A stretch of DNA of 50,552 nucleotides. Source: Shigella phage SH6. The stretch lies in the sequence record KX828710, one strand, 5' to 3'. Numbering within the stretch: position 1 is the first letter of the stretch; the number at the start of each line of letters is the position of its first letter. The notes beneath the pieces were generated by a model. It was not told the DNA's origin. It was given only the letters and a program-made list of their open reading frames with translations, and made no database searches. This document shows positions 15,758 through 49,175 of this stretch, one piece after another. A program made the translations under genes and the position numbers.

Positions 15758-15785
15758 TTGACGCTTTAACAAAAAGTGCTATTAT
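15758..15785 (+). promoter_or_regulatory. candidate sigma70 promoter upstream of major capsid gene (overlaps reverse-oriented cassette half-motif)
   Basis: TTGACG-N16-TATTAT; spacer contains TTAACAAAAAGTGCTAT, the reverse complement of the cassette motif. Confidence 0.4.
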
Positions 15786-19495: not shown

Positions 19496-19568
19496 GTAAA
19501 ATCATCCTATCAACTTTATTCGATTAACTTTTAACAAAAAGTGCTATCAACCAATCAGGAGAAACATC

Positions 19569-19886
19569 ATGGCTAAATTCAATTTCGTGTTGGGCCAGCT
19601 TCCAGACTTCAAACTCCCGGTGACGTTCACCATGCCAAACGGCGAGGATGCGACTATTATTTTTACAGTACGCCACCTTTCCAGTAAAGAAGTGCAAGAT
19701 ATGTATGCGAAGCAGGGCGAAATGAATGATAGCGATTTCATCACTAAGATCGCATCAGGATGGAATCTGGAAGAAGAATTTAACGAAGAGAATGCGCGTA
19801 AACTGGTACAGTATTATCCTTCCGCAGCGTACAATCTGACGGCAACTTACATCAAGGCGCTCGCCGGACACCGCGCAAAAAACTAA
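19569..19886 (+). CDS. tail assembly chaperone (lambda gpG-like)
   Basis: ~105 aa acidic protein immediately upstream of tape measure; slippery heptamer at its 3' end. Confidence 0.7.
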   Translation: MAKFNFVLGQLPDFKLPVTFTMPNGEDATIIFTVRHLSSKEVQDMYAKQGEMNDSDFITKIASGWNLEEEFNEENARKLVQYYPSAAYNLTATYIKALAGHRAKN

Positions 19887-34914: not shown

Positions 34915-34966
34915 TAAGTAAATAGCACTAATTGCTAAGCACTGATTTTATCATTGTGCTATGAGT
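34915..34966 (-). promoter_or_regulatory. variant cassette upstream of tail fibre gene
   Basis: Minus strand TAGCACAATGATAAAATC then palindrome GTGCTTAGCAATTAGTGCTA; TAAGGAG RBS. Confidence 0.4.
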
Positions 34967-34979
34967 CTTGCAATGGTCA

Positions 34980-35003
34980 ATAAAAAACCGCCCGAAGGCG
35001 GTT
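34980..35003 (-). terminator. rho-independent terminator after primase gene (minus strand)
   Basis: ACCGCC CGAA GGCGGT hairpin preceded on plus strand by A-run. Confidence 0.55.
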
Positions 35004-35949: not shown

Positions 35950-35990
35950 AAAATAAAAAACGCGTAGAAGGATGTTAACCCGCTACGCGT
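35950..35990 (-). terminator. terminator-like hairpin after Cro-like gene (minus strand)
   Basis: ACGCGTAG...CTACGCGT inverted repeat with A-run on plus strand. Confidence 0.45.
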
Positions 35991-35998
35991 CGTTTGTT

Positions 35999-36451
35999 TT
36001 AACTAAAAATGCTATTGGTCGTTCCGATATCTTCCTTCTTCACGACGCGCATAAATTTCTTGTTCTTGCATCGCTTCTCAAGGCACTTGCCGTTACCGTC
36101 AAACTTCAGGTCGAATCGCAACCATGCGGCGCGAAATCCTTTGCACCCCTGTCGGCGGTAAGCACGATGCGCAGCTTCAGCACCTTGCCATGAAATCATA
36201 TTGCGTTCTTTCCAGCCCTGCACCGTCTGATTGCTAACCTTCAGAGCCTTTGCGCAGGCCGCCGGGCCGCCGTAATATTCGATAAGGGCATCAAGTCGCG
36301 CTCGCAGTCCGGCGCGCGTTTCTTCTTTATGAATATAGAAGCCGCAGCGCTGTCGTGGCTTTTTGTCTTTACCGCGTCGTGTTCCGTTGTTACCATTGAT
36401 GTGACGTTTATCGATTTCACCAGTTGACTCCGCGATACGTTGAATACTCAT
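35999..36451 (-). CDS. Cro/YdaS-like HTH DNA-binding protein
   Basis: ACAKALKVSNQTVQGWKERNMISWQGAEAAHRA..LRFD matches YdaS/Cro-type HTH; divergent from helicase gene. Confidence 0.55.
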   Translation of the reverse strand: MSIQRIAESTGEIDKRHINGNNGTRRGKDKKPRQRCGFYIHKEETRAGLRARLDALIEYYGGPAACAKALKVSNQTVQGWKERNMISWQGAEAAHRAYRRQGCKGFRAAWLRFDLKFDGNGKCLEKRCKNKKFMRVVKKEDIGTTNSIFS

Positions 36452-36464
36452 CTTGATTCTCCTA

Positions 36465-36507
36465 TAGCACTTTTTGCTAAAAACGTTTACTGTATGCCGT
36501 GTATTAT
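36465..36507 (+). promoter_or_regulatory. intergenic cassette upstream of helicase gene
   Basis: TAGCACTTTTTGCTAAAAAC; TATTAT at +22 in hairpin CGTTTAC/GTAAACG. Confidence 0.5.
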
Positions 36508-36516
36508 AGCGTAAAC
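36484..36516. promoter_or_regulatory. divergent overlapping -10 elements in hairpin between Cro-like gene and helicase gene
   Basis: Inverted repeat CGTTTAC..GTAAACG with central TATTATA: TATTAT on plus, TATAAT on minus. Confidence 0.45.
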
Positions 36517-36544
36517 GTTACAACGATTCAAAGGATTAATAGAC

Positions 36545-38563
36545 GTGACAATGAACATTAAAAAGCAGATTGCATTACTTGGCGAGGACTACATAAAGCG
36601 AACTCAGGAGCGATTTACTGTTGGTGAGGTTATTCCTTATCCGTACCAGGTTGTTGCTTATGCTGAGATCGCGAAACGCCTATCAAATTACGAGCATCCA
36701 TTCTTTGTTAAAGCGTCGGTGTCTGCGGGTAAGACCATCATTTTTGCTATGGTTGCAAAGCAGTGTCAGAAAATGGGCTTAAAAATGCTTGTGCTGGCCC
36801 GTCAGGGTGAGATTGTCGATCAGGATAGCGAAGAGATCGACAACTTCGGCGTTACTAACTCAATATTCTCAGCCTCATTAGGTATTAAGTCCTGCTATTT
36901 TCCGATCGTGGTAGGCTCCGAGGGTACGGTTGCAAATGGCCTCGACAATGAGCTTGCTGATTTCGTCCCGCATGTAATTGGGATCGACGAATGTCACCAG
37001 GTGGATTGGGAAGACCTTGCGCAAGCCATTGAGGGCAAGGAAACAATGGAACAAATGAGGGGCGAGAAGGGAAAAATCATCATGGATGGAGATATTCCCA
37101 TGATTGGTAATGATGGAAAACCTTTGTTTGGGACTAAGCGCAGTCAGTACACGATCGTAATCATGGAAATGATGCGGCGCTGTAAAAAGGTTCACGGTCA
37201 CGATCTCAGAATATTTGGTATGACTGGATCTGAATTTCGTGGCGTAGTTCCTATTCTGGTAGAGAATCCGAAAGCATTGGGATTCTGGCGTGAGCGAGTA
37301 ACTGATATCGACACAAACTATCTGATTGAGTTCGGTTCTGTTGTGCCGACAATATTCGGTTCAACAGACGGAGTTCATTACGATCTGGATAAGTTCAAGG
37401 CGTCGAGCGAGGACGGAGTGCAGGACTTTACAGAGAAAGACATGAAGGCTATGGAAGATGAGATCCTTCATGATAAATCTCTTACTCAGCGAATCATGCA
37501 AATGGTTGCCAAAAAGGCTGAAGAGCGTAACGCGGTACTGATTACATGTGCTGGTGTGCGCCACTGCAAAGAGGCAGCGGCAGCACTTCCTCCGGGAAGC
37601 ACCTATGCAATTATTACTGGCGACACAGACAACAAAACGCGCAAGAAGATTCTTGACGATGTAAGGGCCGGAAAAATTAAATACACCTTTCAGGTAATGG
37701 CGCTCACTACTGGCGTTAACGTTCCAAATTGGGATTTCAGTGTCATACTCCGCAAGATAGGGTCGCTCACGCTGTTGATTCAACTCTTGGGTAGGGGTAT
37801 GCGTCTGCTTAAATCCTGGCAGGTTGCTGAGGGAATGGTTAAGCAGGACCATCTGGTATGGGATTTCGCAGGTACGATGGATGAGTTGGGTCAGCTTTAT
37901 TTCGATCCGATACTTGAGCAGGCGCAATTCCAAAAGCGTTTCGAAAACGGCAAAGATCCGAAAACATGTCCGAAATGCGGTTGCGTAAATAGCTTCTATG
38001 CTCGACGATGCGTTAATGTCATTGATGGTGAGCGTTGCGATCATTTCTGGACTTCTCAGATTTGTGAGGACCAGGTTGACGAGCGCACCGGAAAAATCCT
38101 TGTTAAAGGATGCGGCGCAGAGAATGACGTTGTGGCCCGAGTCTGTCGTTGCTGTGATGTTTCGCTTGTCGATCCTAACCTGAAGTTATCCGGTAAGGCG
38201 TACACTAAGAATGACTGGTATGAAGTAAAGAATTTTGAGGTTACGCTAACCAAAAACCAGAAAGGCATAATATACAAATACACTCTTATTAACGATGATG
38301 GTGATGAGTTCAAGGCGTATGAAAAATTCTTCCCCGAGTCTGACTCTAAGATTTGCGGTACGCTATGGAAAACTAAAGGTGTATTGCCACACGTATCAGA
38401 TCCTAAAATGCGCCGATACTTTATCGGAATGAAGAGCGCCATCAAGATTTTGCAATACTCACATCATATTGCTCACCCGGTGCGCGTAACTCATCGTCGC
38501 AACCAGAAGAAAGAAGATATTATCTCACGAAAAGACTTTGGTATGGAGGATATCCCGGAATGA
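36545..38563 (+). CDS. ATP-dependent DNA helicase (DEAD/DEAH-box superfamily 2) with C-terminal zinc ribbons
   Basis: Walker A SAGKTIIF, DECH box, CPKCGC..C..C and CGAEN..CRCC clusters. Confidence 0.75.
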   Translation: MTMNIKKQIALLGEDYIKRTQERFTVGEVIPYPYQVVAYAEIAKRLSNYEHPFFVKASVSAGKTIIFAMVAKQCQKMGLKMLVLARQGEIVDQDSEEIDNFGVTNSIFSASLGIKSCYFPIVVGSEGTVANGLDNELADFVPHVIGIDECHQVDWEDLAQAIEGKETMEQMRGEKGKIIMDGDIPMIGNDGKPLFGTKRSQYTIVIMEMMRRCKKVHGHDLRIFGMTGSEFRGVVPILVENPKALGFWRERVTDIDTNYLIEFGSVVPTIFGSTDGVHYDLDKFKASSEDGVQDFTEKDMKAMEDEILHDKSLTQRIMQMVAKKAEERNAVLITCAGVRHCKEAAAALPPGSTYAIITGDTDNKTRKKILDDVRAGKIKYTFQVMALTTGVNVPNWDFSVILRKIGSLTLLIQLLGRGMRLLKSWQVAEGMVKQDHLVWDFAGTMDELGQLYFDPILEQAQFQKRFENGKDPKTCPKCGCVNSFYARRCVNVIDGERCDHFWTSQICEDQVDERTGKILVKGCGAENDVVARVCRCCDVSLVDPNLKLSGKAYTKNDWYEVKNFEVTLTKNQKGIIYKYTLINDDGDEFKAYEKFFPESDSKICGTLWKTKGVLPHVSDPKMRRYFIGMKSAIKILQYSHHIAHPVRVTHRRNQKKEDIISRKDFGMEDIPE

Positions 38564-43873: not shown

Positions 43874-44281
43874 TCAAATTCTTCTTTCGTAAGCTGGAGT
43901 CTTGCGCACAATTCGACGTTCCGATCTATCAACGTTTCTACGTTCGCCAAACAAGTCTTCATCACTCATTTCTCCAATGTGCATCATTTCCCACGTATAT
44001 CGATTGTTGTAGCCATCAATACACATCAGCTTCATCATTACCGGGCGCTTGATCTTTCCCTTGCACCAGTAAAACCCATCCCTGCAATCAAGATAACCCT
44101 CAGTTACACAGCGTGAGCAAAACTCCTTAGATAGCGCGCTTGTAAATTCACGGCGAGTCATTCCGGCGGCCTTAGCAAATCGCTCACTTTCCTTGTGGGC
44201 GTATATAAATTTCGCTATGTGCTGTCGCGTGTATTTGTCGTAACCTTCGCAGAACCTGAAAAGATCTAAAAGAAGAAGCAT
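43874..44281 (-). CDS. hypothetical Cys-rich protein (135 aa)
   Basis: ORF track; CSRCVTEGYLDCRDGFYWC cluster; coupled to upstream gene. Confidence 0.5.
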   Translation of the reverse strand: MLLLLDLFRFCEGYDKYTRQHIAKFIYAHKESERFAKAAGMTRREFTSALSKEFCSRCVTEGYLDCRDGFYWCKGKIKRPVMMKLMCIDGYNNRYTWEMMHIGEMSDEDLFGERRNVDRSERRIVRKTPAYERRI

Positions 44282-45930: not shown

Positions 45931-46356
45931 TTATAAGTATTTGGCCTCAAAGGTTGTGCCGTCTGCGATACTAAAACCCACCTCTTCGCGGAATAAGGTC
46001 CAGCGGCATCCGTCCTCATCAAAGATGTAACCAGCTACGCCGCCAAGAGCGCGACCGCTTTCTACCTGGTAACGCTTTCCAACCTTGAATGATTTTTTCA
46101 TCGGGTTGCGATGGTCAAGTCCGGTGCACTTGAGCGTCTTTGTTTTCAACTCGGTGAACTTCGCGAAGAAGATTTCATCAGATCCGTGAATATGTAATTC
46201 ATCATGCTTTTCAAGTTTTAAATACTTCCCGCACTTTAACTTTACTTCGCGAGTACCATCATAGCGCTCACGACCTTTATACAGATTGTTTACTTCGAAT
46301 CCTGTGATTTTGTCTGCGGAAGTGCATTTCAGTTTGATTGATTTCATTGCATTCAC
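45931..46356 (-). CDS. hypothetical protein with two KC..F.V..Y repeats
   Basis: IKLKCTSADKITGFEVNNLY and KTLKCTGL..FKVGKRYQV repeats. Confidence 0.5.
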   Translation of the reverse strand: MNAMKSIKLKCTSADKITGFEVNNLYKGRERYDGTREVKLKCGKYLKLEKHDELHIHGSDEIFFAKFTELKTKTLKCTGLDHRNPMKKSFKVGKRYQVESGRALGGVAGYIFDEDGCRWTLFREEVGFSIADGTTFEAKYL

Positions 46357-49131: not shown

Positions 49132-49175
49132 ATTATGCCAAATCGCACCGATCTGGTTTTAACAAAAAGTGCTAT
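49132..49175 (-). promoter_or_regulatory. intergenic cassette (minus) upstream of 48913..49098
   Basis: Minus strand ATAGCACTTTTTGTTAAAAC; CATAAT at +22; CATCGAAACGAGA leader. Confidence 0.5.

Follow-up and report, generated by a model that had tools for sequence, protein, structure and literature searches.

Phage T1 belongs to the original set of seven T phages, and its transcriptional ordering is essentially obscure. Here we analyze a 93-bp intergenic gap (positions 36452-36544) in the genome of Shigella phage SH6 (sequence record KX828710), a T1-like phage (Tunavirus, Drexlerviridae). All positions are those of the window, i.e., the whole stretch of 50,552 nucleotides that was analyzed; its segment 35900-36700 is ~97% identical to T1 and to Shigella phage pSf-2. 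The gap lies between a minus-strand open reading frame (ORF) of 150 residues, which encodes a transcriptional regulator, and a plus-strand ORF that encodes a helicase. Our results demonstrate the sequence geometry of this locus, its conservation throughout the family, and its membership in a family of cassettes built on the 21-nt direct repeat of T1-like phages. The gap is probably a compact bidirectional promoter region that combines a leftward sigma-70 promoter for the regulator gene with a rightward cassette promoter for the helicase gene and is conserved throughout the T1-like phages.

Bidirectional sigma-70 promoters with a shared -10 were reportedly described by Warman et al. in 2021. 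In promoters of this class, hexamers on opposite strands share bases and the two starts lie ~18 bp (or 10 or 23 bp) apart. The shared -10 with an 18-bp start spacing is the commonest geometry; such promoters arise from the symmetry of the -10 and account for 19% of E. coli RNAs, and polymerase binds them in one orientation at once, activation of one direction repressing the other (PMC12825309). The PacrA/acrR-type promoters studied by the Grainger and Wade laboratories (Nucleic Acids Research 2026, PMC12825309) resemble the SH6 locus in that the opposite-strand -10s are offset by 1 bp and one arm encodes a regulator. The SH6 locus differs in that it belongs to a virulent phage, in that one arm is a -35-less copy of a ~26-fold cassette, and in that the upstream element of this cassette sits inside the leader of the other arm.

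Activator promoters of class II that lack a -35 include those served by CRP or FNR at -41.5, by lambda cI at OR2 for PRM (-42), and by Mu Mor at Pm (-43.5). The helicase arm of SH6 is similar to these in having a 15-bp pseudo-palindrome near -42, with a -10 present and a -35 absent, and the lambda protein also represses a divergent promoter. In contrast, the SH6 repeat is directional, with A-rich flanks on one strand, and its binder is a candidate only. Another system with comparable sites is mycobacteriophage L5, in which Brown et al. are said to have found in 1997 ~20 to 30 oriented copies of a short asymmetric intergenic site, the stoperators, which lie in transcribed regions and at which the bound phage repressor blocks elongation. 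The T1-type repeats are likewise oriented and intergenic, and some copies lie in leaders (those of the regulator and tail-fiber genes), whereas T1 is virulent and most copies occupy a fixed distance upstream of a -10 and are not within transcribed regions. As for the regulator, the all-alpha Cro proteins of P22, N15, and Xfaso1 share its modeled core fold and a gene position beside divergent early promoters. However, the SH6 regulator has 150 residues, compared with ~60 to 70, carries an N-terminal tail and a C-terminal extension, and has no partner repressor gene.

The repeat itself was described in phage TLS. In the 2024 re-annotation of this phage, only three host-type promoters were found, and a 21-nt direct repeat, aaATAGCACnnnTTGnTAAAA, is present in 18 intergenic copies that are co-oriented with transcription and located ~76 nt ahead of start codons (PMC11447400). 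The authors considered stoperators, enhancer sites, or UP elements and left the function as an open question; in their Table S1 the repeat DR11 (plus strand) adjoins the promoter P57 (minus strand), and the overlap is not discussed (PMC11447400). DR11 and P57 are the orthologue of the SH6 locus at 36452-36544, DR11 having the same sequence, orientation, and distance to the start codon (~76 nt published, 80 nt here). In the TLS paper the repeat and P57 are separate entries, and the paper mentions neither a fixed distance of 22 bp from the repeat to a -10 nor the hairpin, the conserved start with its leader box, or an overlap involving P57 (PMC11447400). Neither the leftward promoter nor the 21-nt repeat is described here for the first time, and promoter architectures with a shared -10 form an established class. 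New, as far as the searchable literature goes, are the fixed coupling of the repeat to the -10, the fusion of a cassette with the promoter of the regulator, and the conservation of this arrangement throughout the family.

Geometry and conservation of the shared -10 region

The promoter of the regulator gene consists of a -35 hexamer, TTGAAT (36526..36531, minus strand), a 17-bp spacer, and a -10 hexamer, TATAAT (36503..36508, minus strand), and its -35 overlaps the Shine-Dalgarno region of the helicase gene by 2 nt. It is canonical, matching 10 of 12 positions in a sigma-70 consensus scan. This promoter is already annotated in the records of T1, SA32RD, and Chapo, and its counterpart P57 is among the only three sigma-70-like promoters accepted in TLS (PMC11447400). 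Canonical matches in the whole window are at chance level, with 88 found (30, 38, and 20) compared to ~82 expected from shuffles (31.3, 31.4, and 19.7), and only a handful, the regulator promoter among them, score at least 10/12. The reality of the regulator promoter therefore rests on its conservation and its earlier annotation. When starts are placed 7 nt downstream of each -10 hexamer, the regulator mRNA is predicted to begin at ~36496 (+/-1), giving a 5' leader (36452..36496, minus strand) that contains the Shine-Dalgarno sequence AGGAG (36463..36459) and displays no unusual RNA structure (z = 0.01).

On the opposite strand, the -10 hexamer of the helicase promoter, TATTAT (36502..36507, plus strand), shares 5 bp with this TATAAT. 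The predicted starts, ~36514 rightward and ~36496 leftward, are divergent and 18 bp apart, so that the locus has the opposite-strand hexamers with common bases and the start spacing of the shared -10 bidirectional class. In the first-pass annotation, made from the sequence, the two promoters had been called face-to-face; this is incorrect because the predicted transcripts, at 36496 and below for the leftward and at 36514 and above for the rightward, do not overlap. Direct reading of the sequence otherwise placed the 93-bp interval 36452-36544 and each of its sequence features as that annotation had done. These include the plus-oriented cassette -10 that overlaps a perfect minus-strand TATAAT by 5 bp, both hexamers being found at 36502-36507 and 36503-36508, and the palindrome of the cassette, which was said to lie over the 5' untranslated region of the Cro-like gene and is located in the predicted leader of the regulator. 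The mutual exclusivity that had been proposed for the two promoters agrees with the single-orientation rule established for polymerase at bidirectional promoters (PMC12825309).

The helicase gene heads a plus-strand block and has a divergent neighbor, and it therefore needs a promoter of its own. The consensus scan found no canonical plus-strand promoter in the gap or its vicinity. A -35 was also absent at 16 to 19 bp above the cassette -10, where the sequence 17 bp upstream reads AAAAC. TTGCTA and TATTAT were rejected as a canonical pair, as they are 22 bp apart, and TTGAAT(36440)-17-TATAGC was rejected as a plus promoter because its sixth position is not T and the sequence is not conserved. 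What the focal copy does have is a -10 of the sigma-70 type, TATTAT, with a purine start, A36514, and without TGn. Having neither a -35 nor TGn, the rightward arm should therefore depend on a factor that acts through the repeat. The center of the palindrome, 36472, is at -42 relative to 36514, which is the position of a class II activator site, and is at the same time at +24 in the leader of the regulator, 1 nt from AGGAG. The predicted leader of the helicase mRNA (36514..36544, plus strand) contains ACAACGA, which is the cassette box 'cAtCGAAACGA', and the Shine-Dalgarno sequence AAGGA (36531-36535), and has no unusual RNA structure (z = -0.04).

Conservation was examined in a 16-phage alignment spanning several genera and in 57 distinct relatives. 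The invariant columns of the alignment are those of the repeat core, GCAyTTTyTGyTAAA, together with T36502, A36503, A36506, and T36507, and A36508 is nearly invariant. The conserved bases of the shared -10 are -12, -11, -8, and -7 on the plus strand and -7, -10, -11, and -12 on the minus strand. All 57 relatives harbor the repeat in the orientation of the helicase gene within the leader of the regulator, the spacing being 21 to 23 bp in each of them, and the dual 7-mer TAnnATA is present in 51. In loci with consistent start-codon annotation, the gap has a length of 85 to 93 bp. Citrobacter phage HCF1 (9701-10001) has a ~113-bp tandem duplication in the gap that includes the shared -10 region, and the gap enlarged in this way carries a called ORF of 68 residues.

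The genes on the two sides are arranged as follows. The regulator gene (35999..36451, minus strand), equivalent to CPTT1_056 of T1 (annotated as "transcriptional regulator"), is located left of the gap with two further leftward genes, those for primase and the tail fiber. The helicase gene (36545..38563, plus strand; 672 residues, GTG start, Pfam Helicase_C and ResIII), also annotated in T1, heads the rightward block, in which genes for a VRR-NUC nuclease and a Dam methylase follow and which extends onward to ~43.4 kb. A repeat-like copy, TAGCATTTTTAGTTA (36014..36000, minus strand), overlaps the stop codon of the regulator gene and forms, together with a terminator, the element 35950..36014 (minus strand). 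The terminator hairpin with its T-run comes after this copy, 77 nt ahead of the primase start, and the hairpin of this cassette is thus a complete terminator; the T1 record annotates a terminator at the equivalent position. The first-pass annotation had seen in the gap a switch for entry into replication. This is unsupported, as primase is on the regulator arm, behind the terminator and the repeat-like copy, with the helicase on the other arm, and because competition becomes relevant only upon strong activation of one direction (PMC12825309). Placing a replication origin by GC skew was tried and rejected, the skew merely tracking gene orientation.

The 21-nt repeat and its cassettes

The repeat in the gap, ctATAGCACTTTTTGCTAAAA (36463..36483, plus strand), matches the published consensus. 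Its core is the 15-bp pseudo-palindrome TAGCACTTTTTGCTA (TAGCAC-TTT-TTGCTA, 36465-36479), which lies between the predicted minus-strand start at ~36496 and the AGGAG of the regulator. As published for the family, the copy is intergenic and co-oriented with its gene, here in the plus direction, with 80 nt from the core start at 36465 to the GTG of the helicase gene. Counted at no more than 1 mismatch, the window contains 26 oriented copies of TAGCAC-N3-TTGYTA. In 20 of them, a -10-like hexamer (A at position 2, T at position 6, and at least 4/6 matches) is found exactly 22 bp past TTGYTA, the distance seen at the focal locus; no other offset reaches 3 copies, and with a background of 2% per position the binomial P value is ~4e-29. 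In the cassette consensus, tGgTATAgT, conservation is strongest at the two positions that mark sigma-70 promoters, A2 and T6. G is present at -14 in 23/26 cassettes, and TG in 15/26. The seventh nucleotide past the hexamer is A in 20/26, and the conserved box cAtCGAAACGA starts at this position and is followed by a ribosome-binding site; a Shine-Dalgarno sequence and start codon are located 69 to 83 nt downstream on the same strand for 21/26 copies. Neither a -35 nor TGn is present in 11/26 cassettes, including the focal copy. Among other T1-like phages (80 loci), the hexamer is found at an offset of 21 to 23 in 314 of 359 distinct repeat contexts, and the cassette layout of a Vibrio T1-like phage is identical.

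With the hexamer at -12 to -7, TTGYTA spans -40 to -35 and the pseudo-palindrome is centered at -42. TTGYTA is 5 bp too far upstream and therefore cannot serve as a -35. The cassettes look like -35-less sigma-70 promoters with a fixed upstream element at the position of a class II activator.

Within the repeat, the G and C positions of GCAC and TTG are invariant, and the central triplet occurs in three variants, TTT, GAA, and TAA. One antisense copy (15767-15781, minus strand) is located in the spacer of a promoter upstream of a late structural gene (15758-15785, plus strand; TTGACG, 16 bp, TATTAT, with TG; 10/12 for sigma-70) and overlaps its -10. Judging from this position, a protein bound at 15767-15781 would block the promoter at 15758-15785. 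A second antisense repeat in the late block (19532-19546, minus strand) is found ~25 nt ahead of the ATG at 19569, in the context TTAACT-ttt-repeat-TCAA that also surrounds the copy at 15767. A perfectly palindromic repeat, TAGCACTAATTGCTA (34923-34937), is located between the primase terminator and the start codon of the tail-fiber gene (34901, minus strand). Weak promoter matches on the minus strand (34980..34945) lie immediately upstream of this copy, and AAGGAG follows it after 7 nt; its layout parallels that of the repeat in the leader of the regulator gene. As three copies overlap or directly follow late sigma-70-like promoters and the G and C positions are invariant, a protein operator fits better than a passive UP element.

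A scan of 185,579 genomes for the repeat gave more than 120 mostly single matches, about the number estimated for chance, and a host-factor site was rejected on this basis. An exact ATAGCACTATTTGCTAAAAC is present between the 3' end of yeeZ and a putative amino acid permease gene, at an orthologous chromosomal site in Kluyvera, Pseudocitrobacter, Citrobacter amalonaticus, and Pseudescherichia. This site may reflect chance plus orthology, or it may be a site for a host factor that the phage repeat imitates. A 46.7-kb contig in a Nitratidesulfovibrio liaohensis assembly carries typical T1-type cassettes with two exact repeats, one of them followed by a ATCGAAACGA box, and is probably a contig of a T1-like phage within a bacterial assembly.

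The regulator protein and the hairpin

The regulator is the leading candidate for the protein that binds the repeat, and a dimer of a helix-turn-helix (HTH) protein would fit a 15-bp pseudo-palindrome whose half-sites are spaced by 10 bp. The regulator belongs to PHROG 2856, 'transcriptional regulator' (E = 1e-76). Its Pfam hits are below the gathering scores (P22_Cro, 23.6 versus 30.2 bits; YdaS, 19.5 versus 30), and its PDB sequence match to P22 Cro has an E value of 0.83. In the AlphaFold2 model (predicted local distance difference test [pLDDT] score of 81), the core is modeled confidently, and Foldseek aligns the regulator with the Cro proteins of Xfaso1 and N15 (TM score, 0.71 to 0.73; root mean square deviation, 2.3 A; probability, 1.0; E, ~1e-2). 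According to this model, the regulator has the all-alpha Cro fold with an HTH. The label "Cro/YdaS-like" that the gene had received in the first pass consequently holds for the fold and not for the sequence family. The HTH core comprises residues ~40 to 105 and is accompanied by a conserved N-terminal tail (residues 5 to 33) and a C-terminal extension. Conservation in the regulator family peaks outside the HTH, in the N-terminal motif STGEIDKRxxNGNNGTRRGKDKKPR (residues 5 to 33; 36353-36439, minus strand), which is basic and was modeled with low confidence.

The two -10 hexamers lie in the 20-nt loop of an inverted repeat, AACGTTTAC (36482-36490) and GTAAACGTT (36511-36519), which spans 36482..36519 and pairs at 9/9 bp. 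Both -10 boxes had been described as lying inside CGTTTAC/GTAAACG, which is true, and the repeat extends beyond these arms. The hairpin has a predicted stability of -11.3 kcal/mol as RNA (z = -2.8) and -6.4 kcal/mol as DNA (z = -1.84). With only -6.4 kcal/mol and a 20-nt loop, cruciform extrusion is unlikely, and neither predicted transcript includes both arms. The hairpin was kept in Tunavirus without compensatory changes; at z < -2 it is found in only 10 of the 57 distinct relatives and is absent in most genera, and its arms fall in nonconserved columns of the 16-phage alignment. It was rejected as the conserved core on these grounds, and the earlier statement that the promoters share one hairpin is true of the sequence but does not describe what is conserved. 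AACGTTTAC was also rejected as a repeated operator half-site; it has 18 matches at no more than 1 mismatch, compared with 11.7 +/- 3.6 expected, and its other exact copies are inside genes. A search for a known RNA family gave no Rfam match.

Hairpins are a common feature of the cassettes. Directly past the repeat, 19/26 cassettes have a hairpin at z < -2 (20/26 when the copy at 49174, with z = -1.88, is counted), compared with 6.5% of control 42-mers. The hairpin sequence differs for each copy, and it encloses or precedes the hexamer. A co-directional gene ends at the repeat in at least 17 of the 20 copies with a hairpin and in at most 1 of the 6 without. In the 26 cassettes, the TAG of the repeat is often the stop codon of the upstream gene, and copies at the heads of operons are mostly without a hairpin. 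The association with an upstream gene suggests that the hairpin belongs to the 3' end of read-through RNA from the preceding gene and is not a part of the promoter. The focal copy departs from this pattern in having a hairpin but no co-directional upstream gene. The hairpin would seem to be a lineage-specific accessory of cassette copies that is not required for the promoter logic.

Proposed regulation and its alternatives

At the bidirectional promoter region that we propose, host polymerase would first fire leftward and the Cro-fold regulator would be made. A sequence-specific protein, for which the regulator is a candidate, would bind the repeat and recruit polymerase rightward, and polymerase competition, together with the protein bound in the leader, would lower the synthesis of the regulator. 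Such a polymerase-competition switch is a plausible candidate mechanism. A broader proposal, which we put forward tentatively and consider possible rather than likely, is that the ~26 cassettes constitute a phage-wide regulon of -35-less promoters activated by the Cro-fold protein, and that the system acts as a self-limiting pulse generator. In such a regulon, synthesis of the activator would come first and would start from a canonical promoter of the host type, of which there are few, and the binding site of the activator would be present in its own leader. Because the promoter of the activator and the cassette activated first have their -10 in common, activation of the helicase arm would shut off synthesis of the activator, and the repeat copies that overlap late-gene promoters would hold these back.

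Several observations weigh against the bidirectional promoter region and its regulation. The plus promoter, with neither a -35 nor TGn, should be weak alone, and a site at -42 can also repress. The quality of the minus-strand -35 varies by genus in the 16-phage alignment, from TTGACT to TTAAAA, and is poor in several genera. Transcription start mapping for T1-like phages was not found in the searchable literature, and both starts are predictions. With respect to the binder, T1 annotates two other weakly HTH-like proteins (HHpred, 88% to RipR), encoded at 43874-44281 and 45931-46356 (minus strand), which are alternative candidates and have no Pfam support. The regulator family was found only in T1-like phages, and a comparison of regulator and repeat for covariation is uninformative, as every relative found has the same repeat. 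The hairpin at the focal copy is not accounted for by the proposed regulation. In addition, the E. coli bidirectional promoters that were tested compete only at high activity and show little basal interference (PMC12825309).

Other explanations of the cassettes differ in whether the repeat has a protein partner and in what this protein does. If the protein only represses, as a Cro or a stoperator system would, the cassettes would be constitutive early promoters of unmodified host polymerase and the repeat an operator, including the copy in the leader of the regulator itself, with neither activation nor a competition switch. The Cro fold of the regulator is in line with this, as are the positions of the copies that overlap or follow late promoters or lie in the regulator leader, which are typical of repression. 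Moreover, 15/26 cassettes have an extended -10 (TGn) that is workable without a -35, and stoperators were suggested by the TLS authors themselves (PMC11447400). However, strict spacing of 22 bp relative to the -10 is a typical property of elements in contact with polymerase and not of repressor sites; the 11/26 cassettes that have neither a -35 nor TGn, the focal copy among them, would need a positive upstream contact; and one protein repressing both early and late promoters would provide no obvious temporal order. We regard repression alone as unlikely.

It is also conceivable, but improbable in our view, that the two promoters are independent and unregulated, both of them modest, with the shared -10 a by-product of -10 symmetry and the repeat a UP-like element without a dedicated protein, in which case there would be no switch. 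Bidirectional promoters that result from -10 symmetry are very common and are free of basal interference (PMC12825309), and the T variant of the repeat is similar to A/T-rich UP elements, a likeness noted by the TLS authors (PMC11447400). The invariant G and C positions (GCAC and TTG) and the three variants of the central triplet are nevertheless unlike UP elements, and essentially all relatives have kept both the dual 7-mer and the arrangement with the repeat in the leader. An element that functions at the RNA level in long transcripts, in processing, stability, or antitermination, would leave only the leftward promoter real and the helicase gene expressed by read-through. The repeats are indeed co-oriented with genes, most copies come directly after a stop codon and have a hairpin of variable sequence, the hairpin copies are those that follow a co-directional ORF (at least 17/20, compared with at most 1/6 of the hairpin-less copies), and TAGCA/TGTTA would still pair as G-U in the sense RNA. 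At the focal locus, however, nothing co-directional lies upstream and yet the repeat and the hexamer are fully conserved, and the only plus-strand source upstream would be an antisense transcript through the primase and regulator genes. The A2/T6 sigma-70 signature of the hexamer, the TG, the A at the start, and the lack of an Rfam match also argue against an RNA element, which we consider very improbable.

The rigid coupling of the repeat to a -10 located 22 bp downstream suggests that the repeats are the upstream halves of missing promoters. At the SH6 locus, a cassette and the promoter of the leading regulator candidate are fused back-to-back, which makes this locus a natural place to test the idea. 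If the cassettes do form a regulon, this would answer the open question of the role of the 21-nt repeat in T1-like phages. If the repeats are not promoter halves, the locus would still be a clean and deeply conserved phage example of the bidirectional promoter class, which was defined only recently.

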